A DNA stretch of 64,000 nt, from IMG/VR virus record IMGVR_UViG_3300042465_006773; one strand, written 5' to 3'. Position 1 is the stretch's first letter. The number at the start of each line of letters is the position of its first letter. The notes below the pieces were generated by a model. The model worked only from the letters and a program-made list of their open reading frames with translations, did not search any database and had not been told where the DNA came from. Origin of the DNA: a virus. Below, piece after piece: positions 507 through 14,178 of this stretch. The translations under genes and the position numbers were made by a program.

Positions 507-591
507 TACCACCGACCGGACTCGAACCGGTACGGGAATTACTCCCAACAGAGTTTAAGTCTGTATCGGCTACCAATTACGACACGATGGC
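507..591 (-). tRNA. tRNA-Leu (anticodon TAA)
   Basis: Acceptor GCCATCG/CGGTGGT, anticodon arm ACAGA-CTTAAAC-TCTGT, long variable arm, GGTTCGAGTCC. No encoded CCA. Confidence 0.9.
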
Positions 592-635
592 ATTTTTTTA
601 TATAAAGATACACAAAAAACTAATGATTTCAAATA

Positions 636-878
636 TTAAATATAGTCTTCACACCATATCGGTGTTTTTTCTCCTACATATGAACCAGAAACATTAAATT
701 CAAAGTATTCAACGGCATCCATTTCACTCATACCTTGTTTTGTCAGTACATCAATACACTTACTAACAGAATAGATTAATCTCATTGTTTTTGTTTCGAT
801 ACCTATTATTGCATCGTCGAAACCGTCGGCCATTAAAATATCCTCATCAGGATAGATGTCTAAAATTTTTTGTATCAT
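636..878 (-). CDS. Small acidic hypothetical phage protein inside the tRNA cluster
   Basis: 80-aa ORF with ADGFDDAIIG and EYFEFNVSGSYVGEKTP, a pattern I recognise from phage hypothetical proteins. Confidence 0.7.
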   Translation of the reverse strand: MIQKILDIYPDEDILMADGFDDAIIGIETKTMRLIYSVSKCIDVLTKQGMSEMDAVEYFEFNVSGSYVGEKTPIWCEDYI

Positions 879-897
879 TTTTTAAAAATATTTTTAG

Positions 898-971
898 TAC
901 TCCCGATGGGACTCGAACCCACAAGCTTCCCCGTGAAAGGGGGATGTCCTAACCAGTTAGACGACAGGAGC
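898..971 (-). tRNA. tRNA-Glu (anticodon TTC)
   Basis: Acceptor GCTCCTG/CGGGAGT, anticodon arm TCCCC-CTTTCAC-GGGGA, GGTTCGAGTCC. Confidence 0.9.
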
Positions 972-989
972 ATTGTTTCATAATTAATG

Positions 990-1062
990 TGACCCTGGGC
1001 AGGTTCGAACTGCCGACCCATACATTAAAAGTGTATTGCTCTACCAACTGAGCTACAGAGTC
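990..1062 (-). tRNA. tRNA-Lys (anticodon TTT)
   Basis: Acceptor GACTCTG/CAGGGTC, D-arm GCTCAGTTGGTAGAGC, anticodon arm ATACA-CTTTTAA-TGTAT, GTTCGAAC. Confidence 0.92.
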
Positions 1063-1071
1063 ATTAGGTGA

Positions 1072-1079
1072 CAAATATA
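1072..1079 (-). promoter_or_regulatory. Bacteroidota-type -7 promoter element (TATATTTG) for the tRNA cluster
   Basis: Matches TAnnTTTG, about 10 nt upstream of tRNA-Lys. The same octamer precedes genes at 9107-9114, 11063-11070, 13255-13262 and 27778-27785. Confidence 0.65.
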
Positions 1080-1154
1080 CATAATAAAAACTAAAAAACA
1101 AAAAAATGTCATATATAATTTTTTAAATATATATGAAAAATAAAATTGCCGGGA

Positions 1155-1161
1155 TATTTAT
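1155..1161 (+). promoter_or_regulatory. Putative phage late promoter (TATTTAT) upstream of the envelope operon
   Basis: Same heptamer that precedes the structural transcription units; lies about 45 nt before ATG 1205. Confidence 0.45.
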
Positions 1162-1204
1162 TGTTAACCAAACATGATAAATAAACCAAACATAAATTAT
1201 AACT

Positions 1205-1459
1205 ATGACTTTCAAAAATTGGATTGTAGACTTATTTAAAGACGAGAGAGGTTCTACTTCTATAAAACCCGTAATCGCATTTTTAGGTTCAACTTTTCTA
1301 TGTGGTACTATGTTAGCTAATTCATTTTCTCATGGTGATATTAAACCATCTGAGGATTTGGTAAACGCAGTAATGATTATAACCGCGATAGGAATGGGTG
1401 CCGATACTTTGGATAAGTTTTCACATAAAAGGAAATTTGAAGACAATGTATCTGAATAA
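1205..1459 (+). CDS. Small two-TM membrane protein (holin-like topology)
   Basis: Two hydrophobic segments (PVIAFLGSTFLCGTML; VNAVMIITAIGMGA) and a charged C-terminus. Confidence 0.7.
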   Translation: MTFKNWIVDLFKDERGSTSIKPVIAFLGSTFLCGTMLANSFSHGDIKPSEDLVNAVMIITAIGMGADTLDKFSHKRKFEDNVSE

Positions 1460-1461
1460 AA

Positions 1462-1956
1462 ATGAAAAAACCATATATACTTACCGTTTTATTTTTTCTT
1501 TTATTGGGGTTAAATAATCTTAACGCCCAAAGTCTTGTTGTTGATACGGTAATCAACAACATAAAAATAGGTCCATTTACTGAAAATAAAAATTTGGCAT
1601 TTGGAGTTAAAAATATTGCTGAAGAAATTATAAACGAACAGGATAAATTTTATTTGGTTGGAGACAAATCAACGTCAGAATATAAAATAAAAATTGAACT
1701 AATATTTTTTGATATTATTAAGGTTAACTCCGGTATTAGTGTTTTCCATCAAGATAAAACAACGACGGTAATTAGAATGAAAGGGATTCTATACAAAGGA
1801 GATAAAAAAATAAAACAAGAATTTTCGGAAGGGAAATCGACAGAAATATCAACTTCAACAATCATTATTGATGAAGGTGGTAAATTTAATCAACAATCTG
1901 CCAGTTCAGCAATAAAAAAAACAACTCAAACACTATTAAATAATTTATTACTATGA
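1462..1956 (+). CDS. Secreted protein, short CsgG-like paralogue
   Basis: Signal peptide ending LNA|Q. Aligns by eye with 4775..5539: FGVKNIAEE/LGVANITLE, SEGKS/GLGEA, KFNQQSASSAIKK/KFNQSTIGISTKK. Confidence 0.65.
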   Translation: MKKPYILTVLFFLLLGLNNLNAQSLVVDTVINNIKIGPFTENKNLAFGVKNIAEEIINEQDKFYLVGDKSTSEYKIKIELIFFDIIKVNSGISVFHQDKTTTVIRMKGILYKGDKKIKQEFSEGKSTEISTSTIIIDEGGKFNQQSASSAIKKTTQTLLNNLLL

Positions 1957-3860
1957 AAAAACTAATTTTAACATTTGTGTTAATGATGATAACCTATGTA
2001 GGTTATTCACAGAGCGTAGGTAATTTTCAACAATTATCTACAATAAGAAGAAACGATACGTTAGATGTAATATTTCAATACATCCCCGACCCAACAAAAG
2101 ATGTAAGGTCGTTTCAAATCGATTTCCAATTTAAGAAGGATTTATTTACACACGTTTCAACAACTGTGGATAATAGTGTTAATACCATGACACCGGCAAT
2201 ATCATATAACGAATATGATAACTTTAAGTATGGTTCATATAGTCCAGCAACGGGTTTATATGGGTATGTTAATGACACAAATTGGACCGTCGCTAGAAAC
2301 TTTTTAGTATTATCAAGTGGTTCTCAAATTTCAGGAGCAATATACATCATTCACAATAAATTTTTAATTAACAATGTTCAATCCAATTTCGTGGAAGATA
2401 GTGTACACGTGAACTGGGTTAGATTGTTTAAAAAAGACGGTACAAGTATTGGTGATAACGTAGCGAATTTGACTTACAAGAGTATGAAGTTAGATTTGGG
2501 TGGTAACTTGGTTATAAGTGGTAATGTTGAACTTCCACCGACTATGAAATTAGATGGTAGAAGACCAATGGTTATATGTACTAAATTAAACACTGGTGAG
2601 TTTGTGTCTTCTTCTTTATGTGATACTTCAGGTAACTATAGTTTAAATAATGTTGATAGAAACACTAGATATAAATTACTTTTAAGATTCCCATCTGATA
2701 GTATGGAAACTTTCAGAGATTATGCGGTAACGATATCAGATGCCGTAAAAACATATGATGAATTTACAAGAACAGACGTTAATCAAACGTATTCAAGATT
2801 TTATTTGAAAAATGGTTTATCTTATTTGATTGCTGATTTAAATGGAAATGGTAATTTAGATGGTGGTGACCCGTATTTGATATACGCAAATGTTAGTGGT
2901 TTAAGAAAAATAGATACTACGAACATGATTAGAGTGTTTAAAGCATCTGATTATGATAACTTAGTTTTAGGTCAAAACCAATGGTCTATTTGGCCTAATT
3001 TTTTAAACACAACAAACTTTATCACGGATAGTGTTGGTAACGAAAATTTGGTTGTGAATATTAAATACTTTATACAAGGTGATGTTGATAGAACATTCTC
3101 TTCAAGAGTGTGGGATAGTAATGGTAATTTAGTTGCCAGAGCAATTTATAAAGGTAAATTAGATATTAACATACCAAACACATATTCTGTTGGTAATCCA
3201 TCGTTATATGTTCCATTTAACATAAACACAAATGGGGATAATAACTATGGACTACAATTTGAAATGAAGTATGACAGAACAAAAGTTAAATTTGAAGAAA
3301 TCGTGTCCAATTTTAATGGTGGCCCATGGTTACAATATGTGACACACGATGAACTATCAGGTACTGTTAGGTTTGGCGGAATGAATAATCAACAAAGAGA
3401 CGGTTTAATTGGTCAATCGACACCTTTTAAACTTAAATTTTCACCAATTGGTGGTGAGGATATCGTAACAAATATTCAAATTAGAGAATTGATGGATGCC
3501 TCGGACGAAAATGGTGACCACTTAAATATTGAGTTACAAAACCAAATCGCAGTTTTAAGTTATAGGTCAATTCCACAGACCCATCAAGTTGTTGAAGAAA
3601 TAACAGCATCGATAAGACCAAACCCAACAACAGGTTGGTTTGAATTAGAAGTTAAATTTCCAAATCAAAATATGTTTATGGACGCATCTATTTATGATAT
3701 CAGAGGTAAGTTGATTCAAAACGTAGGACAAGTTATAACAAATCCAATGGAAACGGTCGCATATAAACAAATTGATATGACATACGCTTCTAATGGAAAT
3801 TATTTTCTAATTCTGAATAATTATAATAAACAATTAACTAAACAATTTATAAAAGTATAA
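1953..3860 (+). CDS. T9SS cargo: cohesin-like / beta-sandwich / dockerin-like / cohesin-like / T9SS C-terminal sorting domain
   Basis: Signal peptide GYS|Q. Cohesin-like motifs VRSFQIDFQF and YGLQFEMKYD...GTVRFGG...FKLKF; Ca-loop ADLNGNGNLDGGD; C-terminus IRPNPTTG...SIYDIRGKLI...GNYFLIL...TKQFIKV typical of a type A T9SS CTD. Confidence 0.8.
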   Translation: MKKLILTFVLMMITYVGYSQSVGNFQQLSTIRRNDTLDVIFQYIPDPTKDVRSFQIDFQFKKDLFTHVSTTVDNSVNTMTPAISYNEYDNFKYGSYSPATGLYGYVNDTNWTVARNFLVLSSGSQISGAIYIIHNKFLINNVQSNFVEDSVHVNWVRLFKKDGTSIGDNVANLTYKSMKLDLGGNLVISGNVELPPTMKLDGRRPMVICTKLNTGEFVSSSLCDTSGNYSLNNVDRNTRYKLLLRFPSDSMETFRDYAVTISDAVKTYDEFTRTDVNQTYSRFYLKNGLSYLIADLNGNGNLDGGDPYLIYANVSGLRKIDTTNMIRVFKASDYDNLVLGQNQWSIWPNFLNTTNFITDSVGNENLVVNIKYFIQGDVDRTFSSRVWDSNGNLVARAIYKGKLDINIPNTYSVGNPSLYVPFNINTNGDNNYGLQFEMKYDRTKVKFEEIVSNFNGGPWLQYVTHDELSGTVRFGGMNNQQRDGLIGQSTPFKLKFSPIGGEDIVTNIQIRELMDASDENGDHLNIELQNQIAVLSYRSIPQTHQVVEEITASIRPNPTTGWFELEVKFPNQNMFMDASIYDIRGKLIQNVGQVITNPMETVAYKQIDMTYASNGNYFLILNNYNKQLTKQFIKV

Positions 3861-3864
3861 AATC

Positions 3865-4212
3865 ATGAGTGAAGAAACAGAAAACGACGGCTCTTGGGGT
3901 GGTTTGAAAAAAACCATCGTAGGTACATTAGCAACCATTGTCACAGGTGGTGGTGTGTGGGTATCCACAACTCTATTTGGTGGTGGAGGGGACGATAAAG
4001 AAGAAACTAAAACAGAACAGGTTGCACCCGCACCAGTTATTAATCTTAATTTAGAAAATAATAACACTCAACAACAAAATAACTCGGGTGGTGGAACAAC
4101 TATCATAAAAGAAAGAGTTATTGAAAAGCAACCAGAAAATAACAATAAACCCGCACCTGCTCCGAAGAAAAAAGAAGGTGATGAATTTAAAGAAACCCCA
4201 CCAGCATGGTAA
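3865..4212 (+). CDS. Single-pass membrane protein with low-complexity N/Q/P tail
   Basis: Hydrophobic Gly-rich segment TIVGTLATIVTGGGVWV followed by a disordered-looking tail. Confidence 0.7.
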   Translation: MSEETENDGSWGGLKKTIVGTLATIVTGGGVWVSTTLFGGGGDDKEETKTEQVAPAPVINLNLENNNTQQQNNSGGGTTIIKERVIEKQPENNNKPAPAPKKKEGDEFKETPPAW

Positions 4213-4778
4213 ATGATAATTCTCAAAACACTGGATTTAGAGAACTTCTAAATTCAATGATGAAAAGAAGGTGGTTTATAACCGCCATAGTTCTTGGTGG
4301 GTTCATGTTAATTATGGGTGGAATATTTTTGGCCATATTTGAACAAAGTGCCATAAGTGGAGAATGGAAAGAACTTCTTCTTTTACTTCTTGGTGCTTTC
4401 ATTGGTTCCTACGGTAAAATCATTGACTATTGGTTCAGTGATACTGATAAGGATAAAATGTTAGTTCAAAAAATGGATGAAGAGGATGGTACTTCGTTAT
4501 CAAATACATCGGATATACCAGATTCACCAAAACCATCAACACCATCTAAACCCATTCTTGATTTAGAAAGTACTGAAACGAAATCAAATAATGAACAAAA
4601 AGTTGGTGTAGAAATCGATGAGGATGGTGATGGTATTATGGATGGTTTAGATTTCGATAATGACGGTATCATTGATGAATATTTCACACACAGACAATGT
4701 GAACACGTTTGGGGTGATTCAGACAATGACGGTGATTTAGAGTGTTTAAAATGTGGTAAAATAAAAGACGAAGAATGA
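4206..4778 (+). CDS. Two-TM membrane protein with Ca-binding DxDxDG repeats and a Cys/His cluster
   Basis: Two TM helices, then DEDGDG, DFDNDG, DSDNDG and CEH...CLKC. Confidence 0.75.
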   Translation: MVNDNSQNTGFRELLNSMMKRRWFITAIVLGGFMLIMGGIFLAIFEQSAISGEWKELLLLLLGAFIGSYGKIIDYWFSDTDKDKMLVQKMDEEDGTSLSNTSDIPDSPKPSTPSKPILDLESTETKSNNEQKVGVEIDEDGDGIMDGLDFDNDGIIDEYFTHRQCEHVWGDSDNDGDLECLKCGKIKDEE

Positions 4779-5539
4779 ATAACATAATCAAAATGAAAAA
4801 ATATTTACTACCAATTTTAGTATTTCTATTTTGGGTTATCATAATGACGATATTAATGTTTGATGTTGCATCTGCACAAGTTATTGGTAAAACACAAACA
4901 GAGCAATACAAAGCGTCATTTGAAACAAGTGTAAATATTGATTCATTAATGGATTATGAGGGACCACAAATTCCTATTCAAATTTTGAAAATAGGTATAA
5001 ATGATGAAGTTTATGAACAATACCCAGAATTAAAAGAAAAAAAAGTTGGTTTGGGTGTTGCAAATATCACATTGGAGTACTTGGAAAATCTAAATAGATT
5101 TACTTTTACCGAAGATAAAACCGAAATAAAAAACAGAATGGTTAAACAATTCCAAGCGTCTCAAGCTGGAATAAGTGCAGATACTTTAGATGGTAGGGGT
5201 AAAATTCGTTTAGCACACTATTTTGTTAGTATTGAAGTTTATGATTTTTCAATAAGTGAAGATGAGACTGTTAACTTGTCTGATGGCGTAAAAAATACTG
5301 TGGTTACAAGATTAGGTTTACAGGTTAGATTTACCGATGCAGAAACAGGCCAAATAATCGCTGCAAGTGGTTTGGGTGAAGCTAAAACGGTAAGAGAATT
5401 AAGTTTAATAAACGACGATAATTTAAGTGATGTTAAATTTAACCAATCAACTATTGGTATAAGCACTAAAAAAGCATTAGACATTGCATGTTGTAGAATA
5501 CTATTGAGAATGATAAAAAAGGGTGTTTTCCCTAATTAA
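4775..5539 (+). CDS. CsgG/HfaB-family protein (likely start MKKYLL, about 4793)
   Basis: Signal peptide ASA|Q. LGVANITLEYLENLNRF, VYDF, LGLQVRFTDAETGQIIAASGLGEA and a C-terminal helix fit the CsgG/HfaB family. Confidence 0.75.
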   Translation: MNNIIKMKKYLLPILVFLFWVIIMTILMFDVASAQVIGKTQTEQYKASFETSVNIDSLMDYEGPQIPIQILKIGINDEVYEQYPELKEKKVGLGVANITLEYLENLNRFTFTEDKTEIKNRMVKQFQASQAGISADTLDGRGKIRLAHYFVSIEVYDFSISEDETVNLSDGVKNTVVTRLGLQVRFTDAETGQIIAASGLGEAKTVRELSLINDDNLSDVKFNQSTIGISTKKALDIACCRILLRMIKKGVFPN

Positions 5540-5577
5540 CAAAGACAGATTCTAATATCTTCTTTTAAAGAAAATGA

Positions 5578-7011
5578 GTGATGATATTAAAAAATATTAT
5601 AAAAGTATCTTTAATAATATTACTTATAATATTTTCTAAAATATCAAATGCACAAGTAACCACTTATACATTTATAGACCCTTGTACAAAAGAAGTTAAC
5701 ATTTTTAGTGTACCATTACAAGGAGGTAAAACAACAATAATTTTTTTAAATAAAATAGGTTATTTTGATAGTGACGATTTGTTAAATGGAACATTTTCAA
5801 ATTGGATAAATCAAGTTTATGGTGAATATAGACAAATAAGTCCGTGTTCACAACAACAATCTCAAGTAACTCAAAATCAAATAACCAGTCAAATAATCGG
5901 AGGAGTTGTACAATCGGTAGTCGGTTCAATAATGTCATCCAATCAATCTTCAAATGGGTCAACAGAAAATAACAATGAGGACTCTGAAGAAAACAATAAT
6001 ACTCAAAGAAATGGAAACAATAATACTACGGGAAATAATGAAAACAACTCTTCAAATCAAGGAGGAGGACAATCTCAACCAAATCAAACAAATGGTGGGT
6101 CATCTGGAGGAACAAATAACGGTCAAGGAAATGGAACTACAGGCAATGGTGGAGCGAATGGAGGTACAACTGGTTCAACACAAGGAAGAAATCCGTCGAC
6201 TAAACCGACTGTAAACAATTCAAACAATTCTGAATCAAATGGTGAAGAAGTTGCCGCAACTACCACAATAAATTTAGATAGTAGAACCGAGAAAGGTGAT
6301 AATTCATCAAATGATGGTGGTGGTTCAGGAAGAAGAGGTGGGTCAAGAAGTGGTGGTTCAAACAGTAATCCAATTATAGTTTCCTCAGATTTAACATCGG
6401 CACAAAATTTAGATGGTAGGTTCACAGGGATAATAAACATCAGTACCAGTAGGTCGTCGATGACTGGTTTATCAAATTATGGTGTTACAAGTATGATTTG
6501 GTTAAATTTAAACCAATTCGCCATTTCCGCCAAATATAGTAAAATACATTTTGATAAAAGTCAAAAGTTAAAATTCGTCCATAATCTAAATTTAACAGGT
6601 GTTTATACATATGGTAATTACCTGGTATTTTTAGGGTATAGTGGTATCTTAAATGCAGGTAAATTCGGAGTAACCGGTTTAAATTTGAGTGCTGCCGCCT
6701 CAATAATCACTAAAGAAAAAACAGGTTATTACTCACCTTCTGCAACTTTTTTCTACACAAAACCATTTCAGGTTAACAAAAGATTTATGATGTCACCTGA
6801 AATATATGTAATGTCAACACCGTTAGTTTATTCAACAAAAGATAGAATAACAATTACAGACAGGTACGTGAGTGGTTTTATAGGTACGGGAATGGATTAT
6901 CAAATATCAAAAAGATTTAAAATAAACTTGAATTATAAGGCAAATATGAGTACTAAACCGAATTTTCCTATTTTGTCTTTTTTTCTAATTGGTAGTAAAG
7001 TTAATTTATGA
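5578..7011 (+). CDS. Outer-membrane beta-barrel protein with N/G/S/Q-rich low-complexity stalk
   Basis: Signal peptide SNA|Q, small N-domain with two Cys, about 140 aa of N/G/S/T/Q-rich sequence, then about 210 aa of alternating hydrophobic strands ending FFLIGSKVNL. Confidence 0.7.
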   Translation: MMILKNIIKVSLIILLIIFSKISNAQVTTYTFIDPCTKEVNIFSVPLQGGKTTIIFLNKIGYFDSDDLLNGTFSNWINQVYGEYRQISPCSQQQSQVTQNQITSQIIGGVVQSVVGSIMSSNQSSNGSTENNNEDSEENNNTQRNGNNNTTGNNENNSSNQGGGQSQPNQTNGGSSGGTNNGQGNGTTGNGGANGGTTGSTQGRNPSTKPTVNNSNNSESNGEEVAATTTINLDSRTEKGDNSSNDGGGSGRRGGSRSGGSNSNPIIVSSDLTSAQNLDGRFTGIINISTSRSSMTGLSNYGVTSMIWLNLNQFAISAKYSKIHFDKSQKLKFVHNLNLTGVYTYGNYLVFLGYSGILNAGKFGVTGLNLSAAASIITKEKTGYYSPSATFFYTKPFQVNKRFMMSPEIYVMSTPLVYSTKDRITITDRYVSGFIGTGMDYQISKRFKINLNYKANMSTKPNFPILSFFLIGSKVNL

Positions 7012-8756
7012 GATTCTTTGGGTTCTTGTATGTATTATTTTTATTACCAATATTTGTTTTTTCTCAAAACATAAGCGCACCATCATCCACCAATTTTTCT
7101 CAAAATTTATCTAATCAAAATGCGAGTGGATTTTCAATATCAAATTTTAACACAAGCGCAACTTTACTTATTACAATTGGTTTAGTAAATCCACCGGCCG
7201 GTACTACTCTTTCGTTAATAACAACAACAGGATTATCTTTAAGTACAGGTTATTCTTCTTGGTCAAATTTTACAAGAATTAGTTTTACGGGTATTCAATC
7301 AAATATTAACAACGCTTTAAGTTCGTTAAAATTAAACACAGGTTCTTTACCGGGTAATGTTTACATCGCGGTAACCGCAACCGTAAATCCAACGGGATAT
7401 TATTATTTACCAACAAACGGACACTTTTATAGACCGATGTCTTGGCCAGCGGGTAATTCAGGAACAAGTAATTCGATATATGAAAATATAAAAACATTAT
7501 CAACACAACAAACATTTAAAGGACAAACCGGGTATTTGTTAACGATTACATCTCAAGATGAACAAAATTTTGTTCAGTCAAACGTACCGGGTAATAATAT
7601 TTTATTTTCATTAACAGACGTTGGTCAAGAAGGTGTTTGGAGAATAGATGCCGGACCTGAAAATGGTACAATAATAAAAACATCAAATTCGGGCGGAAAC
7701 GTTGCGGGTAGATATAACAATTGGTGTGGTGGTGAACCAAACAATTGGGGTAGTGGTGAAAACTATGCAGTTACTAAATGGGGTGGTGGTAATTGTTGGA
7801 ACGATTTTGGTCCACCTGCATCATCTTTTCCTGGTTCAATAAGTGGTTATGTTGTTGAATTTGGAACGTGGTCAGACCCCGCAAATCAAAATTTCACAGA
7901 TTTTTTTACAGGATTTGTTACACATCAAATTACTTGTACACCATCACAAGAACCACCAAAACCCATTGCAGTAAACGGTAGTAGAACGGGTAGTGGTACT
8001 GTGACAATATCAGCAACAGTTGGTCCCGGTCAAACTGTTGATTGGTATAATAATTTAACAGGGGGTAACCCAATATTAGTTGGTAATACCACTTTTACGA
8101 CACCAGTTATTTCTCAAACAACAAAATATTATGCTCAGTCAAGAAATACGTCAACGGGTTGTGTTAGTTCAACAAGAACAGAAGTCACGGCAACAGTTTC
8201 AATTTCAGAAACAATAAGTGGGACAATAACTATTCCTAATAATATAACAAATAGACCACAATTAAAATTTTATCTTGTTGAGAATAATTTAGAAACATTA
8301 ATACAGACCATAAACGTTAATTCAAATGGTTCATATACTTTGAACCCAACAAAACACAATTCAACATACAAAATAGTTCCAACGTTTTTTGATTCATTAA
8401 CAAATAACGATTTTAATTTATTATTTAACGAATCTAAAAATGAAAATACACCAAATCAATTACCCATTGGTTTGGTTTTAAATAATGGAAAAAAAATGAT
8501 TTCGGGTGATATTAATAATGATGGAAAAATAACAATTGTCGATGCCTATCTATTGGCATCAAGAATATCGGGAATGATTTATTTTAACGAAACGGTATGG
8601 TATTACGAAAATGATTATAATTTAATAGGTATTGGTAATTTTAATTCAATACCTAATTACCGACAATTTATTGTTAATTTTGGGACATCCAATATTATTT
8701 TAAATTTAAAATATATTGTTAAGGGAGACTGCGATTTGTCAATATCCTCTTATTGA
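7008..8756 (+). CDS. Secreted C-type-lectin-like / Ig-like / dockerin-like protein
   Basis: Signal peptide VFS|Q. CTL motifs GYLLTITSQDEQNFV, EGVW, YNNWCGGEPNN, ENYA, WND; Ig module TVDWY...TTFTTPVISQTTKYYAQ; dockerin loop GDINNDGKITIVDAYLL. Confidence 0.8.
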   Translation: MRFFGFLYVLFLLPIFVFSQNISAPSSTNFSQNLSNQNASGFSISNFNTSATLLITIGLVNPPAGTTLSLITTTGLSLSTGYSSWSNFTRISFTGIQSNINNALSSLKLNTGSLPGNVYIAVTATVNPTGYYYLPTNGHFYRPMSWPAGNSGTSNSIYENIKTLSTQQTFKGQTGYLLTITSQDEQNFVQSNVPGNNILFSLTDVGQEGVWRIDAGPENGTIIKTSNSGGNVAGRYNNWCGGEPNNWGSGENYAVTKWGGGNCWNDFGPPASSFPGSISGYVVEFGTWSDPANQNFTDFFTGFVTHQITCTPSQEPPKPIAVNGSRTGSGTVTISATVGPGQTVDWYNNLTGGNPILVGNTTFTTPVISQTTKYYAQSRNTSTGCVSSTRTEVTATVSISETISGTITIPNNITNRPQLKFYLVENNLETLIQTINVNSNGSYTLNPTKHNSTYKIVPTFFDSLTNNDFNLLFNESKNENTPNQLPIGLVLNNGKKMISGDINNDGKITIVDAYLLASRISGMIYFNETVWYYENDYNLIGIGNFNSIPNYRQFIVNFGTSNIILNLKYIVKGDCDLSISSY

Positions 8757-9088
8757 TGATTTGTATTAAGTTTATTATATAAAGTTAATATTTGTTCACA
8801 GTATTCATATTCTTCTTTATCTTCAAAGAAGGGTAAAATGTCTCTAATTAAAACAAAACACTCTTTTTTGTTGAATTTTAATTCAGTTTCCCATTGAAGT
8901 CCGTTAATTTTTGCGGATAATAATAATATGACGTTTTCTTTATCTTTTCTATTTATACTTTTAAAAGATAATACAACATTTTTATATATTTCTTCTTTGT
9001 TTTTTAAATAAAATTCAGGGAAGTCTTCATACGATTCGTCGATTTTTAGTTTCTTAATTATCGTGTCCTTTGGTTTGTCTTGATACAT
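8750..9088 (-). CDS. Hypothetical protein (probable ATG at 9088)
   Basis: ORF preceded by a TATATTTG promoter at 9107-9114; C-terminal EEYEYCEQI resembles a UVR-type helix. Confidence 0.6.
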   Translation of the reverse strand: MYQDKPKDTIIKKLKIDESYEDFPEFYLKNKEEIYKNVVLSFKSINRKDKENVILLLSAKINGLQWETELKFNKKECFVLIRDILPFFEDKEEYEYCEQILTLYNKLNTNHQ

Positions 9089-9152
9089 TGCACTATCTGT
9101 TTTAATCAAATATACGAATCATAAGACTCATATCAAAATTTTTTTATTAACA

Positions 9153-9611
9153 TTATTGGGTATGGTCTATTTTAACCCTAACACAAGATTGTTCTTGTCT
9201 TTCTCTCATTAAAAAATTATTGATATACCCCATAATGTTAGATGCCCCAACTGGGTTCGCTGAATGTGTATAAACCTGTGGAAAGTTAATCGGGGTATTC
9301 CTTTTCTCCATAGATGACATCTTTTCTCTATTTTGAGAAAAATTATCGTAGTAGTGATTTATTAACCATTTAGCACAATCATATCCTGTTTTTTCTTTAA
9401 TATTCTCATAATTTAATTGTCCGTTTGGGTAAACATTTGAATAGAATTCCTCCATCGCACTATCACCTAAATCATGGTCAAGAGATATTATGTCAATATT
9501 CTCTAATCCAATTTTTGTTACTGTTTTTACAAAATCATCGTAATTTCTTACAACAATCCAATCTGTATTAATTGGTGTACGGATATCGTCTAAATAAATT
9601 TTAACTTTCAT
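9153..9611 (-). CDS. Cyclic-phosphate-processing receiver-like (cREC) protein
   Basis: YLDDIR, WIVVRNY, ISLDHDLG, TGYDCAKWL and HSANPVG motifs; adjacent to an RNA ligase. Confidence 0.8.
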   Translation of the reverse strand: MKVKIYLDDIRTPINTDWIVVRNYDDFVKTVTKIGLENIDIISLDHDLGDSAMEEFYSNVYPNGQLNYENIKEKTGYDCAKWLINHYYDNFSQNREKMSSMEKRNTPINFPQVYTHSANPVGASNIMGYINNFLMRERQEQSCVRVKIDHTQ

Positions 9612-10668
9612 CTTTTTTAAATGGTTTAGAATATGTTGGTCGTATTAATTTCCAAATTTTGCTTGAGTAGTCTTTACCATCTAACATACTAAATAATAAA
9701 TATGGGTACTTATATTTTTTAGTATATTCAGCAAATACCGCTCTATTTTCACCGTTTGAACTTCTACTAATTACTTTGAAAATACACTTGTATTCTTTTT
9801 CTATTTTTTCGTATTGATTTAACAATTCGTTTTTAGTGTCTCTAACCCAATTATAAAATTCATCGGGTACTTTATCAAGAATTTCATCAAAAGAAATATT
9901 ATCTCTTAAAGATTCCCAAATATCGATATTTGAAACATTCGTTAAAATTCTATGTAAACGAACATACTCTTCAAACTTTATTTTCATTCTAAAATTTGAA
10001 GGATAAAATCGAATAACAAACCCCTCTCTATTTGGGGTATTTAGTTTTTTATATGTATCAAAAGTTTCTTTCCCAAAAGTTATCATGGTACTTTCCACAA
10101 TATCTTCTTCTTTAATTTCTGATGAATTAAAAATTGCTCGGGCAGTATACCAATTCAGTTCACCTTCAGGTGACGTTACCGATAAAAAAGTAACCTTATC
10201 GTGTTCGTAACTGACTACAATTCTATTCTCCGAATAGATTATTTCTAATAAATAAGTAAATCCCTTAACAAATTTTGATAAATCATATTTTGATTTAAGA
10301 ATATTAAAACCACGAATAGATTGTTCTGAGGTAAACGAACCTCTTGTCGCCATTATCCACTCATCATCATAATTAAATAAAATACCAAGAGACCCGTCCA
10401 TTTTTTCTTGAACATAAGCATATTCACTATTCCAAGGAATTAAATCTTTATGAATAACCTCTTCGTAATTAAAAAATTTACCAAACGGTTTGGCAACAAT
10501 ATCACCTTTTGAATTAGTAATGAGACCACGACACTGCATGGTGATATCATCCCAAAGAGATTCATACTGTACTTTGGGGGTATAGTTCCAAATGCACAAA
10601 TCTTTGGTAGGATGGATTTGTTTCATTAATAAACCATCTTCGTGGTATTTTTTAAGTGTTTCTATCAT
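9601..10668 (-). CDS. T4 Rnl1/RnlA-like RNA ligase
   Basis: CRGLI, KFFN, motif I EKMDGSLG, ATRGSF, LEII, EGFV, KIK. Confidence 0.9.
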   Translation of the reverse strand: MIETLKKYHEDGLLMKQIHPTKDLCIWNYTPKVQYESLWDDITMQCRGLITNSKGDIVAKPFGKFFNYEEVIHKDLIPWNSEYAYVQEKMDGSLGILFNYDDEWIMATRGSFTSEQSIRGFNILKSKYDLSKFVKGFTYLLEIIYSENRIVVSYEHDKVTFLSVTSPEGELNWYTARAIFNSSEIKEEDIVESTMITFGKETFDTYKKLNTPNREGFVIRFYPSNFRMKIKFEEYVRLHRILTNVSNIDIWESLRDNISFDEILDKVPDEFYNWVRDTKNELLNQYEKIEKEYKCIFKVISRSSNGENRAVFAEYTKKYKYPYLLFSMLDGKDYSSKIWKLIRPTYSKPFKKDES

Positions 10669-11048
10669 ATAGAAAATTCAAAACGTTTCTTCATTATTTC
10701 TAATCTATCTTCTGGTACTCCGTGTAAATTCAAACCTCCATGTCGATTTTCAACAATAATGGAATGTACCCTGTAACCAAATTGATTAGCCATTTCATAG
10801 TAAGAATCCATTTCCCATTTTTGAGTGAAAGTATTAGATACAATGATAAGTGGTTTTTCCAACAACATCCAATCCGAAACTTGATTCCTACACCATTCGT
10901 GTGCTATTTTTAATTTTGACCCGTCAAAGTGATATTCACCGTCTTTCATAAAGTACATATCCGCTTCGATATGTTCACCATCTAAAAGTTTCGCTAACGT
11001 TGATTTACCTGACCCAGGTAATCCTCTTAAAAGTAACAGTTCTTTCAT
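10665..11048 (-). CDS. P-loop polynucleotide kinase-like (AAA_33) protein (probable ATG at 11048)
   Basis: LRGLPGSGKST, EADMYF, AHEWC, VSNTF, HGVP. Confidence 0.85.
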   Translation of the reverse strand: MKELLLLRGLPGSGKSTLAKLLDGEHIEADMYFMKDGEYHFDGSKLKIAHEWCRNQVSDWMLLEKPLIIVSNTFTQKWEMDSYYEMANQFGYRVHSIIVENRHGGLNLHGVPEDRLEIMKKRFEFSI

Positions 11049-11086
11049 TTTATTTGTTTTTACAAATATACGAAAAAAAAACCAAT

Positions 11087-11180
11087 AAAAAACCCCCAAC
11101 GGAGAGTTGGGGGTCATGGTCATTTTGTGGTTTCAACACCACTAACTAAAACGAGAGGAATCGGCAAAGATTTCCTATTT
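11087..11180 (-). ncRNA. Candidate structured small RNA ending in an intrinsic terminator
   Basis: TATTTATA at 11185-11192 (-), hairpins at 11156-11176 and 11121-11153, then terminator ACCCCCAAC-TCTCC-GTTGGGGGT-TTTT at 11087-11114. Confidence 0.45.
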
Positions 11181-11220
11181 GATATATAAATATATATACT
11201 TTTACAAAAAGTCAAGGTAT

Positions 11221-13239
11221 TTAGCTTCTTTTTTTAATTATTTTTATTTCACCGTCTTTAAACTTCAGTAAAATGTTTTGATTTTCAGACACCTCACCTC
11301 TTAGTATTTTTTCACTTAAAAAGTCCTCACACAAGTTTTGTATGATTCTCTTTACTGGTCTAGCCCCGAAATCTTCTTGGGTATTCAATTCAGAAATCCT
11401 ATCAACAATTGATGAATCAAATGAAACTTTATAATTTTTTAGTGTGAGTCTTTTTTTAAGTTTCTCTAATTCAAGTTCGATTATTTTGTGGATACTTTCT
11501 TTTACGAGAGGATTAAAACTAATGATATCATCCACCCGATTTAAAAATTCAGGATTAAAGTATTGCTTCAAAGATTTTTGAACAATTAATTTTTTTACTT
11601 CCTCATTTTGAGTATTACTAAAAGATGTTTCAAATCCGAGACCCTTACCAAAATCAGAAACTTTTTTTGCTCCAATGTTAGAGGTCATGATAATTATTGC
11701 ATTTGAAAAACTAACTTTCCTTCCAAAAGAATCTGTAAGGTGTCCTTCATCTAAAATTTGTAATAGTATATTGAACACGTCTTTATGGGCCTTTTCTATC
11801 TCATCAAATAAAACCACAGAAAAGGGGTTGTGTTTAATTTTTTCAGTCAACTGACCACCTTCATCATATCCAACATACCCAGGAGGTGCACCAATCAATT
11901 TTGCAACATTGTGTTTTTCCATGTATTCACTCATATCAACCCGAATAACTTTATTTGGGTCATTAAACAATATCTCTGCAATTGATTTTGCTAAGTAAGT
12001 TTTACCAACACCTGTTGACCCTAAAAAGATAAAGGAACCAATTGGTTTATTGGTGTCTTTAATTCCAACTCTGTTTCTTCGTATTGATTTTGATATAATT
12101 GAGATTGCCTCATCTTGACCAATAACTTTAGATTTCAATTTTTCTTCTAAATTTAAAAGATTGTCAGTTTCAACAACATCAACTTTAGATATAGGAACAC
12201 CGACAATTTGGGATACCATTTCATATACATCATCTATTGAAATTGGTATTTTACTATCTTTTTGTGTTTCCAACCATTTTTCTTTTTCTTCTTGTAGTTT
12301 TGATAAAACCTTTTTTTCTTCATCTCTTAACTTAGCCGCTTGTTCATATTGTTGATTTTTTACTACCTGAATCTTCCTCATTTTTATATCATCGGACTCT
12401 TTTTTAAGTTTTTCAATTACTTCAGGTATTTTAGAGTTTATTTTTTTATCGGAACCAAGTTCATCTAAAACATCAATTGCTTTGTCAGGAAATTGTCTAT
12501 CTGTTATGTACTTTGAAGACAAGGTAACGATTGTAGATAAAACATCATCACTATAATGAACTTTATGAAAATCTTGATATGAATTTCTAAGATTTTTTAA
12601 TATTTGAACTGTTTCATCGGCCGATGGTTCCTTTAAAACTATTTTTTGAAATCTTCGTACAAGTGCACCGTCTTTTTCAATGTTTTTTTTGTATTCATCA
12701 AAAGTGGTTGCACCAATACATTGAATCTCACCTCTAGCCAATGCGGGTTTTAATATATTGGCAACATCCATTGAACCACTTGCGTTACCGGCACCGACCA
12801 TCGTATGCATTTCATCAATAAACAATATTACATTTGGTTCATTTTGTAACTCATTTAAGATTGCTTTAATCCTTTCTTCAAACTGACCCCTGTACTTTGT
12901 TCCTGCAACCAAAGACGTTAAATCCAACGATAATAATTTTTTATCCAATAGATTACTTGGACAATCTCCATTGACTATTTGTAATGCTAATTTTTCAACC
13001 AACGCCGATTTACCAACACCAGCATCACCAACAATTATTGCATTATTTTTTTTCTTTCGGGCTAAAATTTGGGCAATTCTTTTGACTTCTTTTTCTCTAC
13101 CAACAACGGGGTCAATTTTACCTTCTTCCGCTAATTTATTTAAGTCCCTTGAAAAATTATCAAGAACCGGTGTAGTTGAACTTTTTTTTGTTTTTTTGGA
13201 ACTCGATGGGTTCCCATCTTCGAAAAAATCTACTGACAT
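11221..13239 (-). CDS. clpC: ClpC-like AAA+ chaperone lacking the N-terminal Clp domain
   Basis: Two AAA modules (GDAGVGKS/LFIDEMH; GSTGVGKT/LFDEIEKAH), KYRGQFEER, GYVG pore loop, UVR-like middle domain QQYEQAAKLRD and a GLGF ClpP-docking loop. Confidence 0.92.
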   Translation of the reverse strand: MSVDFFEDGNPSSSKKTKKSSTTPVLDNFSRDLNKLAEEGKIDPVVGREKEVKRIAQILARKKKNNAIIVGDAGVGKSALVEKLALQIVNGDCPSNLLDKKLLSLDLTSLVAGTKYRGQFEERIKAILNELQNEPNVILFIDEMHTMVGAGNASGSMDVANILKPALARGEIQCIGATTFDEYKKNIEKDGALVRRFQKIVLKEPSADETVQILKNLRNSYQDFHKVHYSDDVLSTIVTLSSKYITDRQFPDKAIDVLDELGSDKKINSKIPEVIEKLKKESDDIKMRKIQVVKNQQYEQAAKLRDEEKKVLSKLQEEKEKWLETQKDSKIPISIDDVYEMVSQIVGVPISKVDVVETDNLLNLEEKLKSKVIGQDEAISIISKSIRRNRVGIKDTNKPIGSFIFLGSTGVGKTYLAKSIAEILFNDPNKVIRVDMSEYMEKHNVAKLIGAPPGYVGYDEGGQLTEKIKHNPFSVVLFDEIEKAHKDVFNILLQILDEGHLTDSFGRKVSFSNAIIIMTSNIGAKKVSDFGKGLGFETSFSNTQNEEVKKLIVQKSLKQYFNPEFLNRVDDIISFNPLVKESIHKIIELELEKLKKRLTLKNYKVSFDSSIVDRISELNTQEDFGARPVKRIIQNLCEDFLSEKILRGEVSENQNILLKFKDGEIKIIKKRS

Positions 13240-13321
13240 ATTTTGTTTTTTATACAAATATAAGGGATTTCATGATAAAAAACAAATATATGACAAAATA
13301 ACCTAAAAAAGAAAAAAAGTA

Positions 13322-13361
13322 TGACAATATGTCAGTTTGTGTAATTTGGAATCTTTTTTGT
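13322..13361 (+). promoter_or_regulatory. TGACA-N3-TGTCA palindrome plus sigma54-like TGG-N10-GT element upstream of hsp20
   Basis: Palindrome at 13322-13334, another TGACA half-site near 13291, GG at 13348-13349 and GT at 13360-13361; ATG at 13391. Confidence 0.35.
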
Positions 13362-13390
13362 ATAAACATATTCAAATAAAAAAATATAAT

Positions 13391-13762
13391 ATGTTAACAC
13401 TTTACAGAGACCCATTCAAAGACGTATTAGATACGTTTTTTGAAAAACCATCTCTATTTAGGGATGGTCAGAGTAAAATCGTTACAAGAGATGATGAATA
13501 TCAAATCCACCTCTCTGTACCGGGATTGACAAAAAATGATTTGACAATTTCGGTAAAAGATGGTTTGATTTCCATTTCTTATAAAAAGGAAGAAACGGAT
13601 GACAAAAATTATTCGTTTGTCAATTCGTTTAAAAAAACTTATTTGATACCAGAAGATGTATCTGAAAAGGATATTTCGGGAAAGGTTGAGAATGGTATTT
13701 TACAAATAACTCTTCCGAAGAATAAGAAAAAATCATTGGAACGATTTATCTCTTTAAATTAA
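13391..13762 (+). CDS. Small heat-shock protein (Hsp20/alpha-crystallin)
   Basis: VPGLTKNDLTISV, FKKTYLIPEDV, GKVENGILQITLPK and a C-terminal ISL motif. Confidence 0.92.
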   Translation: MLTLYRDPFKDVLDTFFEKPSLFRDGQSKIVTRDDEYQIHLSVPGLTKNDLTISVKDGLISISYKKEETDDKNYSFVNSFKKTYLIPEDVSEKDISGKVENGILQITLPKNKKKSLERFISLN

Positions 13763-13792: not shown

Positions 13793-13830
13793 ATTTGATA
13801 TTTATTATGTATATTACTAAACAAAAAAAA

Positions 13831-14178
13831 ATGAAAGTAATAATTGCTGGTGGTCGTGATTTTAACAATTACGAACTTTTAAAAGAAAGGTGTGATTATT
13901 TTTTACAAAATCAAACCGACATAGAAATTGTAAGTGGTAATGCTAACGGTGCAGATAAATTGGGTGAACAATATGCCATTGAAAAAAATTATTCATTAAA
14001 AATTTTTAAAGCGGAATGGGATAAATATGGTAAATCAGCGGGAATGATTAGAAATACGGAAATGTCAAATTACGGTGACACTTTGATTGCATTTTGGGAT
14101 GGAAAAAGTAAAGGAACGTCACACATGATAAATGAATCAAGAAAAAAAAATCTAAAAGTTAGAGTAATAAATTATTAA
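13831..14178 (+). CDS. SLOG-superfamily YspA/DUF2493 protein
   Basis: IIAGGRDF, IVSGNANGAD, AGMIRN, IAFWDGKSKGT. Confidence 0.88.
   Translation: MKVIIAGGRDFNNYELLKERCDYFLQNQTDIEIVSGNANGADKLGEQYAIEKNYSLKIFKAEWDKYGKSAGMIRNTEMSNYGDTLIAFWDGKSKGTSHMINESRKKNLKVRVINY

Follow-up and report, generated by a model that had tools for sequence, protein, structure and literature searches.

A conserved phage gene block that may place a cohesin scaffold and a lectin on the surface of Bacteroidota hosts

What could eight phage genes, all of whose products seem bound for a membrane or for export, do in the cell that the phage infects? This question is raised by positions 1205-8756 of a 64,000-nt stretch of DNA (the window in what follows), which is part of the virus record IMGVR_UViG_3300042465_006773 (121,302 bp, 31% G+C). 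The interval is filled by eight open reading frames (ORFs) on the plus strand, called here p1 to p8, and all coordinates given for the block refer to that strand. Consecutive ORFs are separated by +2, -4, +4, -7, -4, +38 and -4 nt. Our answer is that the block is a conserved module owned by the phage, whose products leave the cytoplasm and would assemble in the envelope of a Bacteroidota host, making the infected cell adhesive. Taken as a whole, we give this answer an even chance. Its first part is firmer, and we consider it probable that the genes make an exported envelope assembly during infection.

The evidence for export comes from the N-termini. The original prediction had described eight tightly coupled genes on one strand and five Sec signal peptides cleaved before Gln, and both descriptions are borne out. 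The ORFs lie exactly where they had been placed, and the signal peptides read LNA/Q in p2, GYS/Q in p3, ASA/Q in p6, SNA/Q in p7 and VFS/Q in p8, the slash marking the cleavage site. Cleavage sites and membrane topologies were read from the sequence by eye, which also gave two hydrophobic segments each in p1 and p5 and one in p4. A crude scan of the record for a hydrophobic N-terminus followed by [ASGC]Q returned 7 of the 178 ORFs with at least 70 residues. Five of them are block genes and the other two look spurious (antisense or short). All five signal peptides that appear credible in the 121-kb record sit in the block, and this exceeds chance. The Gln at +1 is kept in the aligned orthologues of p6 (19 of 19), p3 (30 of 31) and p7 (29 of 29). 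Signal-peptidase-I substrates of Bacteroidota prefer Gln at this position, and the conserved Gln of the block agrees with that preference. No lipobox was found in any of the eight proteins. Sec export of the five proteins is, as far as sequence can tell, well supported.

An alternative is that these are parts of the virion, fibres or decoration proteins with lectin and immunoglobulin (Ig) domains, and that their hydrophobic N-termini are not export signals. Lectin, Ig-like and SdrD-like domains are in fact common in phage receptor-binding and decoration proteins. However, the five signal peptides are of the cleavable type with a conserved Gln at +1, p3 ends in a type IX secretion system (T9SS) sorting domain, and the fold of p6 is that of a family of outer-membrane lipoproteins. 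Besides, about 10 kb separate the block from the head genes; it lies in an accessory region, away from head and tail genes, with tRNA, RNA-repair and chaperone genes around it. Searches against PHROGs gave no match for seven of the eight proteins, and the single structural match, of p2 to a portal protein, was marginal (E 0.0024). We regard a virion role as very improbable.

The product of p3 (1953-3860; 635 residues) has the architecture of a surface scaffold. Behind the signal peptide we found a first cohesin-like module (2007-2507, residues 19-185), a beta-sandwich with a dockerin-like Ca-loop (2622-3104, residues 224-384), a second cohesin module that is type-I-like (3150-3572, residues 400-540) and a type-A T9SS sorting domain at the C-terminus (3618-3851, residues 556-633, PF18962), referred to below as the C-terminal domain (CTD). 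The AF2 model of p3 has a pLDDT (predicted local distance difference test) of 86.9. Compared with known structures by VIA, the first module superposes on the cohesin module 2vo8 of a Clostridium perfringens GH33 enzyme (Z 13.9, root-mean-square deviation (rmsd) 2.5 A over 132 residues) and the second on CaCohA2, 6kgf_A (Z 17.1, rmsd 2.2 A over 136 of 143 residues), followed by dozens of other cohesins at Z 12-17. At the level of sequence the relationship is distant: p3 has no match to Pfam Cohesin (PF00963) and its family profile reaches the ScaB cohesin at E 0.03. Among its orthologues, gp015 of the cultured phage immuto (36.7 bits) and protein t646 from a TARA contig (43.4 bits) exceed the Pfam cut-off of 24.1. 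The CTD is recognised directly, both by PF18962 (31.2 bits, cut-off 27) and by TIGR04183 (25.1 bits, cut-off 23), the latter being the sole match of any block protein to NCBIfam. Residues 546-635 also resemble the CTD of PorU (6za2_A, VIA Z 9.8), and the CTD motif closes 27 of the 36 aligned p3 orthologues. The T9SS cohesin scaffold that had been proposed from the letters of this DNA is confirmed in these two respects, the pair of cohesin folds and a type-A CTD above the cut-offs of both Pfam and NCBIfam. Targeting of p3 to the T9SS is a well supported prediction.

At the other end of the block, p8 (7008-8756; 582 residues) seems to provide what such a scaffold could carry. Its signal peptide is followed by an N-terminal domain, a C-type lectin domain (7500-7883, residues 165-292), an Ig_7 domain (7953-8201, residues 316-398, Pfam E 7.4e-16) and a C-terminal module made of a beta-sandwich and a dockerin-like part (8319-8750, residues 438-581). 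It has no T9SS CTD. Residues 165-292 matched the carbohydrate-recognition domain of langerin (5k8y_A) in a phmmer search of the PDB with an E of 1.9e-5. The score against Pfam Lectin_C (PF00059), 18.1 bits, is under the cut-off of 22.6, and orthologues such as immuto gp013 (57.3 bits) and the one in locus L121 (30 bits) are above it. The motifs EPN and WND occur in p8 and are retained by its aligned orthologues, even where the lectin domain is N-terminal. In animal C-type lectin-like domains, EPN indicates specificity of the mannose/N-acetylglucosamine/fucose type, and by analogy p8 may bind sugars of this type. In some relatives of p8 (L008 11251-13011 and L063 13152-14873) the lectin domain with EPN and WND comes first and is followed by Ig-like repeats and by the same C-terminal docking module. 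The docking module thus stays constant while the head varies, which suggests that the sugar-binding head can be swapped.

The link between both proteins is this module. Residues 224-384 of p3 and 438-581 of p8 are homologous (BLASTP E 3e-9, 27% identity), defining a module of about 160 residues that appears in scaffold and putative cargo alike. In p8 it scores 16.6 bits against Pfam Dockerin_1 (PF00404), under the cut-off of 22.9, with profile positions 2-22 of 57 covered, and the p3 family profile matches the dockerin of ScaH (8ajy_B) at E 0.0056 over its positions 288-312 only. We call the module dockerin-like and not dockerin because it has a single recognisable repeat and a score below the cut-off. 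Hence, of the lectin-dockerin protein named in the original prediction, the lectin half stands, given the langerin match and the EPN and WND motifs, and the dockerin half has to be weakened.

The most conserved gene of the module is p6 (4775-5539), whose product of 254 residues belongs with CsgG. A profile of p6 collected only 286 relatives from 1.84 billion representative sequences. Neither p6 nor p2 matched any Pfam family, PF03783 included, at E values up to 0.1. Direct sequence searches of the PDB with p6, p2 and p3, and profile searches with p2 and p6, returned nothing meaningful. Yet the AF2 model of p6 (pLDDT 84.6) found CsgG as its top matches in the PDB by Foldseek (E 7.8e-8) and superposed on Escherichia coli CsgG (4uv2_A) with a VIA Z of 13.5 and an rmsd of 3.5 A over 184 residues. 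The next families were Cj1090c (Z 11.0), PelC (Z 10.1) and LptE (Z 9.4), leaving CsgG 2.5 Z units above the nearest of them. The best viral structure match, in BFVD, was a phage CsgG (E 4.5e-8), and the language-model neighbours of p6 are clusters of CsgG/HfaB. In the same way, 14 of 35 aligned relatives from the p6 profile match PF03783 (best E 1.9e-17), and distant full-length relatives carry the Cys of a lipobox. Judged from its model, p6 is a member of the CsgG superfamily, although not a recognisable member of PF03783. Three long strands (residues 149-209) are seen in the monomer model.

The second gene of the pair, p2 (1462-1956; 164 residues), appears to be a shortened paralogue of p6, and its assignment to CsgG rests on hhalign to the p6 family. 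With a diverse alignment of p6 the two families align at a probability of 93.4% (E 2.4e-7, 128 columns); an earlier comparison with a shallow alignment gave a probability of 10% only, so that significance was reached solely with the diverse one. The CsgG-like pair that had been claimed is thus recovered, p6 by its fold and p2 as its paralogue. The curli partners CsgF, CsgE, CsgA and CsgB had no Pfam, NCBIfam or PHROG match among the eight products. More distant bacterial relatives of p6 are lipoproteins followed by another exported protein, e.g. DUF3187. Actually, the arrangement of a p6-type gene followed by a gene for an exported protein of 340-480 residues is found both in phages and in these distant bacterial relatives.

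Is the block really the property of a phage? It might come from a host, as a bacterial surface locus that was recently acquired or that misassembly has joined to the record, and have no role for the virus. In favour of this, the T9SS CTD, cohesin, CsgG and C-type lectin are all bacterial-type domains, and p6 has distant relatives among bacterial lipoproteins, which are paired with further envelope genes. The record that contains the block carries phage markers, namely a large terminase, a portal and a T4-type major head protein. CheckV estimates it as about 39% complete and IMG/VR classifies it as linear, indicating a fragment of a genome. Since contigs of related phages reach 288-321 kb, it is probably a fragment of a jumbo phage. 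A megablast search of the first 25 kb of the record against GenBank phages gave no match.

The distribution of the genes decides this point. Relatives in IMG/VR numbered 555 for p6 (the best 80 at 74-98% identity) and 60 for p3. Of the 139 viral loci that we fetched, with some contigs fetched twice, 121-136 keep p2 to p8 in the same order (130 for p2, 129 for p4 and 128 for p5). A homologue of p1 was found in only 38 of the 139, and the flanking genes in about 40. In the closest relatives the identity of p6 (83-87%) is as strong as that of the neighbouring ClpB-like protein of the phage (77-82%), with lower values for p3 (62-74%) and p8 (46-70%). By contrast with these hundreds of viral contigs, which keep the order of the block while its flanks change, a search for p6 in 185,579 species genomes found six loci, all of them contigs of metagenome-assembled genomes (MAGs) assigned to Flavobacterium, Sediminibacterium, other Bacteroidota and Ignavibacteriales. 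Five of the six carry neighbouring genes of the phage-type block, and the one from Ignavibacteriales has only a p6 relative at 34% identity.

Besides, near-identical DNA (83-99% of sampled words) was present in 18 runs from 16 freshwater studies. Contigs from four of these runs (lake, aquaculture and lagoon metagenomes) bridge both junctions of the block, on the left joining the tRNA genes to p1-p4 (e.g. 1028-4194 and 530-3759) and on the right joining p7 and p8 to the downstream genes (5324-9864 and 8172-12000). A misassembled host locus is excluded by these bridges in independent metagenomes together with the order kept in more than 120 viral loci, and we give hardly any credence to host DNA, a reading that distribution and junctions already contradict. 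Over positions 4401-5200, where p5 ends and p6 begins, the summed contig depth of two metagenomes rises 10- to 50-fold (in run X14, for instance, to 751 from about 10), so many related phages present together must have DNA here that is at least 90% identical.

A cultured phage carries the same set of genes. In the Flavobacterium phage vB_FspM_immuto (160 kb, host Flavobacterium sp. LMO8) they stand in another order and among replication genes: gp013 (Lectin_C), gp014 (a protein with a docking-like segment), gp015 (Cohesin and Por_Secre_tail), gp016 (p4 homologue), gp017 (p6 homologue, 57% identity), gp018 (p7 homologue) and gp019 (p2 homologue). In this module the GenBank labels name the lectin and cohesin domains only. 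Marine TARA contigs with phage replication genes show a further version, made of a protein with Cohesin and CTD, p5, a secreted nuclease, a p4-like gene, a p6 that is a lipoprotein and a p7-like gene. The nuclease is of the Endonuclease_NS/NUC1 type and has a signal peptide. It is located inside the module in the marine contigs (L147, 5050-5670) and beside it in immuto (gp012; L152, 5193-5771), and we found no homologue of it in the record studied here. Both the cultured relative, which infects Flavobacterium sp. LMO8, and the MAG matches to Flavobacterium, Sediminibacterium and other Bacteroidota are clues to the host.

The remaining genes would supply the membrane parts. The product of p7 (5578-7011; 477 residues) is a probable outer-membrane protein, with a small two-Cys domain (5650-5862, residues 25-95) and a conserved C-terminal domain of 216 residues (6361-7008) that is probably an outer-membrane barrel. 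A linker rich in S, G, N and T, of 117-267 residues in the orthologues, separates the two. Relatives of the C-terminal domain fall in 1093 protein clusters; among 120 of these that were listed, identities are 70-76% and none has a Pfam family. Three JGI (Joint Genome Institute) clusters are named 'predicted porin', and the nearest named language-model clusters are porin and outer-membrane protein families at 0.93, a lead only, given the low counts of shared features. Two simple tests of hydrophobicity periodicity were not decisive, a full-length profile matched low-complexity eukaryotic proteins only, and hhalign found no similarity between p7 and the 419-residue protein encoded next to a bacterial p6 relative.

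Of the small proteins, p1 (1205-1459; 84 residues) is a predicted inner-membrane protein with its two hydrophobic segments and no family match. It is mobile, with a homologue between p5 and p6 in the Flavobacterium MAG locus L143. In locus L121 an ORF of 84 codons' worth of protein in the same place, between p5 and p6, is a candidate counterpart. The product of p4 (3865-4212; 115 residues) has an N-terminal membrane anchor and a low-complexity tail rich in Pro and Asn, and its first 51 residues are 63% identical to immuto gp016. That of p5 (4206-4778; 190 residues) has two membrane segments and an acidic tail, and its membrane part is 72% identical to a protein of 104 residues in the marine TARA contigs. 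In the p5 tail (residues ~135-190) we noted two Asp-rich motifs like Ca-loops and a Cys/His cluster, C-x-H ... C-x-x-C, that resembles a small zinc-binding knuckle.

These membrane proteins invite another explanation, in which the CsgG-like, barrel and membrane parts form a device for egress or permeability (a spanin-like disruptor or a pore) and the genes for cohesin and lectin are passengers. The layout of p1 and p5, two membrane segments with a charged tail, is like that of holins, and p4 resembles a membrane-anchored periplasmic protein. To our knowledge, spanins have rarely been identified in phages of Bacteroidota. A pore for uptake has been considered for the CsgG of pelagimyophages by the authors who described it (PMC7029224). 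On the other hand, no endolysin was found in the record, either by tblastn with that of immuto or with Pfam Glucosaminidase, Phage_lysozyme and Amidase_2, a weak point since the record is 39% complete. In immuto the endolysin is about 8 kb away from the module, and in every lineage examined the cohesin and lectin genes are interleaved and co-conserved with the CsgG-like genes. We find a device for egress quite improbable.

How might the products of the block work together? In the adhesive envelope assembly that we propose, p3 would be taken through the type IX secretion system of the host to the cell surface. There its cohesins would hold p8, and perhaps further copies of p3, by their dockerin-like modules, so that several sugar-binding heads are displayed at once. 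Whether the lectin docks on the cohesin scaffold in this way is, from the sequences, a proposition that we hold in balance. Together with the probable barrel p7, the products of p6 and p2 would make up a unit in the outer membrane comparable to CsgG, PelC-PelB or LptE-LptD. This unit would either hold the assembly in place or carry p8, which lacks a sorting domain, to the outside. Alternatively, p8 could ride out bound to p3. The proteins p1, p4 and p5 would link the outer-membrane unit to the inner membrane. An infected cell so equipped may stick to glycans of neighbouring host cells or of particles, and the progeny would be freed beside new hosts.

Regarding purpose, we place adhesion or host capture first, masking in cis second and egress or permeability third. 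Even the first is a tentative choice, which we hold with less than even confidence. Aggregation, exclusion and grazer avoidance, suggested as roles in the original prediction, are likewise guesses. A bolder version is a self-assembling 'lectinosome', in which the T9SS scaffold polymerises through its own docking module, swappable lectins cap it, the CsgG-type unit serves as route or anchor for the parts without a sorting signal and the whole captures uninfected hosts or particles, so that the phage spreads better in dilute water. We think that this version is unlikely.

Masking in cis would use the same assembly as a shield, with a lectin coat that binds glycans on the cell's own surface, at or near the phage receptor, blocks superinfection and spares the progeny from debris. 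Phage-borne exclusion proteins of the outer membrane are well established, such as T5 Llp, Cor and TraT-type lipoproteins. The p6 model does resemble the surface-exclusion lipoprotein TraT, if weakly (Z 7.8). Lectin heads that vary while the docking module does not are compatible with an arms race in which host glycans differ from strain to strain, and the exported nuclease found next to or within the module of immuto and of the TARA contigs also speaks for a shield. However, the TraT match is within the range of common folds, and binding in cis finds no support in these data. The exclusion proteins we know of are single small proteins, and seven to eight genes seem excessive for the task. A shield looks rather unlikely to us.

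Several observations weigh against an adhesive envelope assembly and explain the reserve with which we put it forward. The runs with near-identical DNA include no RNA run for the region, two that are labelled RNA-Seq being probably DNA. The module common to p3 and p8 has one Ca-loop/helix repeat, compared with two in a dockerin, and falls below the Pfam cut-off; that the cohesins bind it is something we infer. A beta-barrel in p7 is likewise inferred from its sequence: the C-terminal domain had no Pfam match among 43 orthologues, low-complexity noise apart, and no PDB match by profile, and its period-2 hydrophobicity is weak (z +1.5). The ends of p6 and p2 are of the signal-peptidase-I type and have no Cys, leaving both without the lipid anchor of CsgG, and the term CsgG-like pair holds for fold and superfamily, not for a ring or a channel. 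For this large lake-water phage, the assignment of the host to Flavobacterium-type bacteria comes from its relatives. Finally, in one distant phage group the cohesin protein ends without a CTD.

In that distant group (L121, 3946-13670) a gene for a 764-residue lectin follows directly after the cohesin protein that lacks the CTD. The same locus has extra inserted genes for a DUF3244-like protein, a weakly PAP2-like protein and a protein of 270 residues.

For its CsgG part, and only for that, the block has a partial precedent. Pelagimyophages of the HTVC008M group carry a csgG/csgF cluster between replication and structural genes; it has no assigned role, and an aggregation called 'sibling capture' was proposed for it (PMC7029224; Zaragoza-Solas et al., 2020). 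As in those phages, we find in large aquatic phages a conserved cluster with a CsgG-type protein and its partners. The CsgG and CsgF of pelagimyophages are recognisable and close to alphaproteobacterial ones, whereas Pfam fails to recognise p6 and p2 because of their divergence, both lack a lipobox, and CsgF was not detected. Beyond the CsgG part, the block encodes a T9SS cohesin protein, a lectin and an outer-membrane protein of another kind, and its hosts are predicted to be Bacteroidota, not SAR11.

The two cohesin folds of p3 recall the cohesin-dockerin assemblies of C. thermocellum (CipA/OlpB), C. acetobutylicum (CipA) and the glycosidases of C. perfringens, and a Ca-loop module present in both the scaffold p3 and the putative cargo p8 is reminiscent of adaptor scaffoldins. 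Unlike a cellulosome, this assembly has no enzymes, its cargo is a lectin, a T9SS sorting domain takes the place of an SLH or sortase anchor, and it is encoded by a phage. In contrast to the dockerin of cellulosomes, the docking module is here one F-hand repeat within a larger fold, and its binding is a prediction. With its signal peptide cleaved before Gln and its CTD, p3 is like the type-A CTD cargo of the T9SS (gingipains of Porphyromonas gingivalis, adhesins of F. johnsoniae and lectin-domain proteins). It differs from host cargo in being encoded by a virus, in one operon with outer- and inner-membrane proteins of its own, and the block has no genes for components of the T9SS. In the same way, a p6-type fold with an exported partner gene resembles outer-membrane machines of two parts (the CsgG nonamer, PelC-PelB and LptE-LptD), but p6 and p2 are not lipoproteins, and no relation of p7 to PelB, LptD or the bacterial neighbours could be detected.

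Single-gene morons and exclusion proteins of phages that act at the envelope, such as Lom and Bor of lambda, Llp of T5, Cor of phi80 and N15 and TraT-like proteins, alter the host surface in infection or lysogeny. The block resembles them in sending phage proteins to the host envelope and differs in having 7-8 co-conserved genes with a modular scaffold and a lectin. Our literature searches found no description of a phage-encoded set of T9SS cohesin and lectin, and the paper on Baltic Flavobacterium phages (PMC7077304) mentions neither lectin nor cohesin. The earlier statement that no phage system of this composition had been described agrees with these searches as regards the whole set, and has to be qualified for the CsgG part by the pelagimyophages. 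The domains are all of known kinds; what is new is their combination and the viral ownership.

These 7-8 co-conserved genes belong to phages of Flavobacteriia that are very abundant in lakes and in the sea. If our reading is true, the phage uses the T9SS of its host together with a plug-and-socket of cellulosome style to display sugar-binding heads. A lytic virus that alters in this manner how its host sticks to cells, particles or other phages would be something new. The matter concerns host finding by phages in dilute water as well as the flow of carbon through Bacteroidota attached to particles. Immuto on Flavobacterium sp. LMO8 is a cultured pair that carries the module, making the idea testable now. 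A cohesin-dockerin-like pair and bacterial lectins of the EPN type would also be additions to the toolbox of protein engineering.

The sequences around the block deserve a short description. The 8-nt sequence GATAAATA at 1176-1183, located 29 nt before the start of p1, corresponds to the motif nATAAATA. Similar motifs, comparable to the late promoter of T4, precede about 15 of 58 gene starts by 11-50 nt, including those of several structural operons. They could be a phage promoter or mere AT-richness, and because the motif is common in AT-rich DNA we draw no timing from it. Directly upstream of the block, on the minus strand, there are four tRNA genes (Arg-TCT, Leu-TAA, Glu-TTC and Lys-TTT; 427-1062). 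Metagenome contigs over this stretch add up to a very high depth and continue from it in many alternative ways, showing that many related genomes have it in common. Downstream, and convergent with p8, comes a gene for a protein of 119 residues without known function, followed by genes that look like RNA repair. The latter form a possible trio on the minus strand (9153-11123) of a cREC_REC cyclic-phosphate-processing receiver protein, a T4 Rnl1-type RNA ligase and an AAA_33 kinase-like protein. Beyond them lie the ClpB-like AAA+ protein (11221-13257, minus strand) and, on the plus strand, an Hsp20 (13337-13762) and a YspA/SLOG protein (13795-14178).

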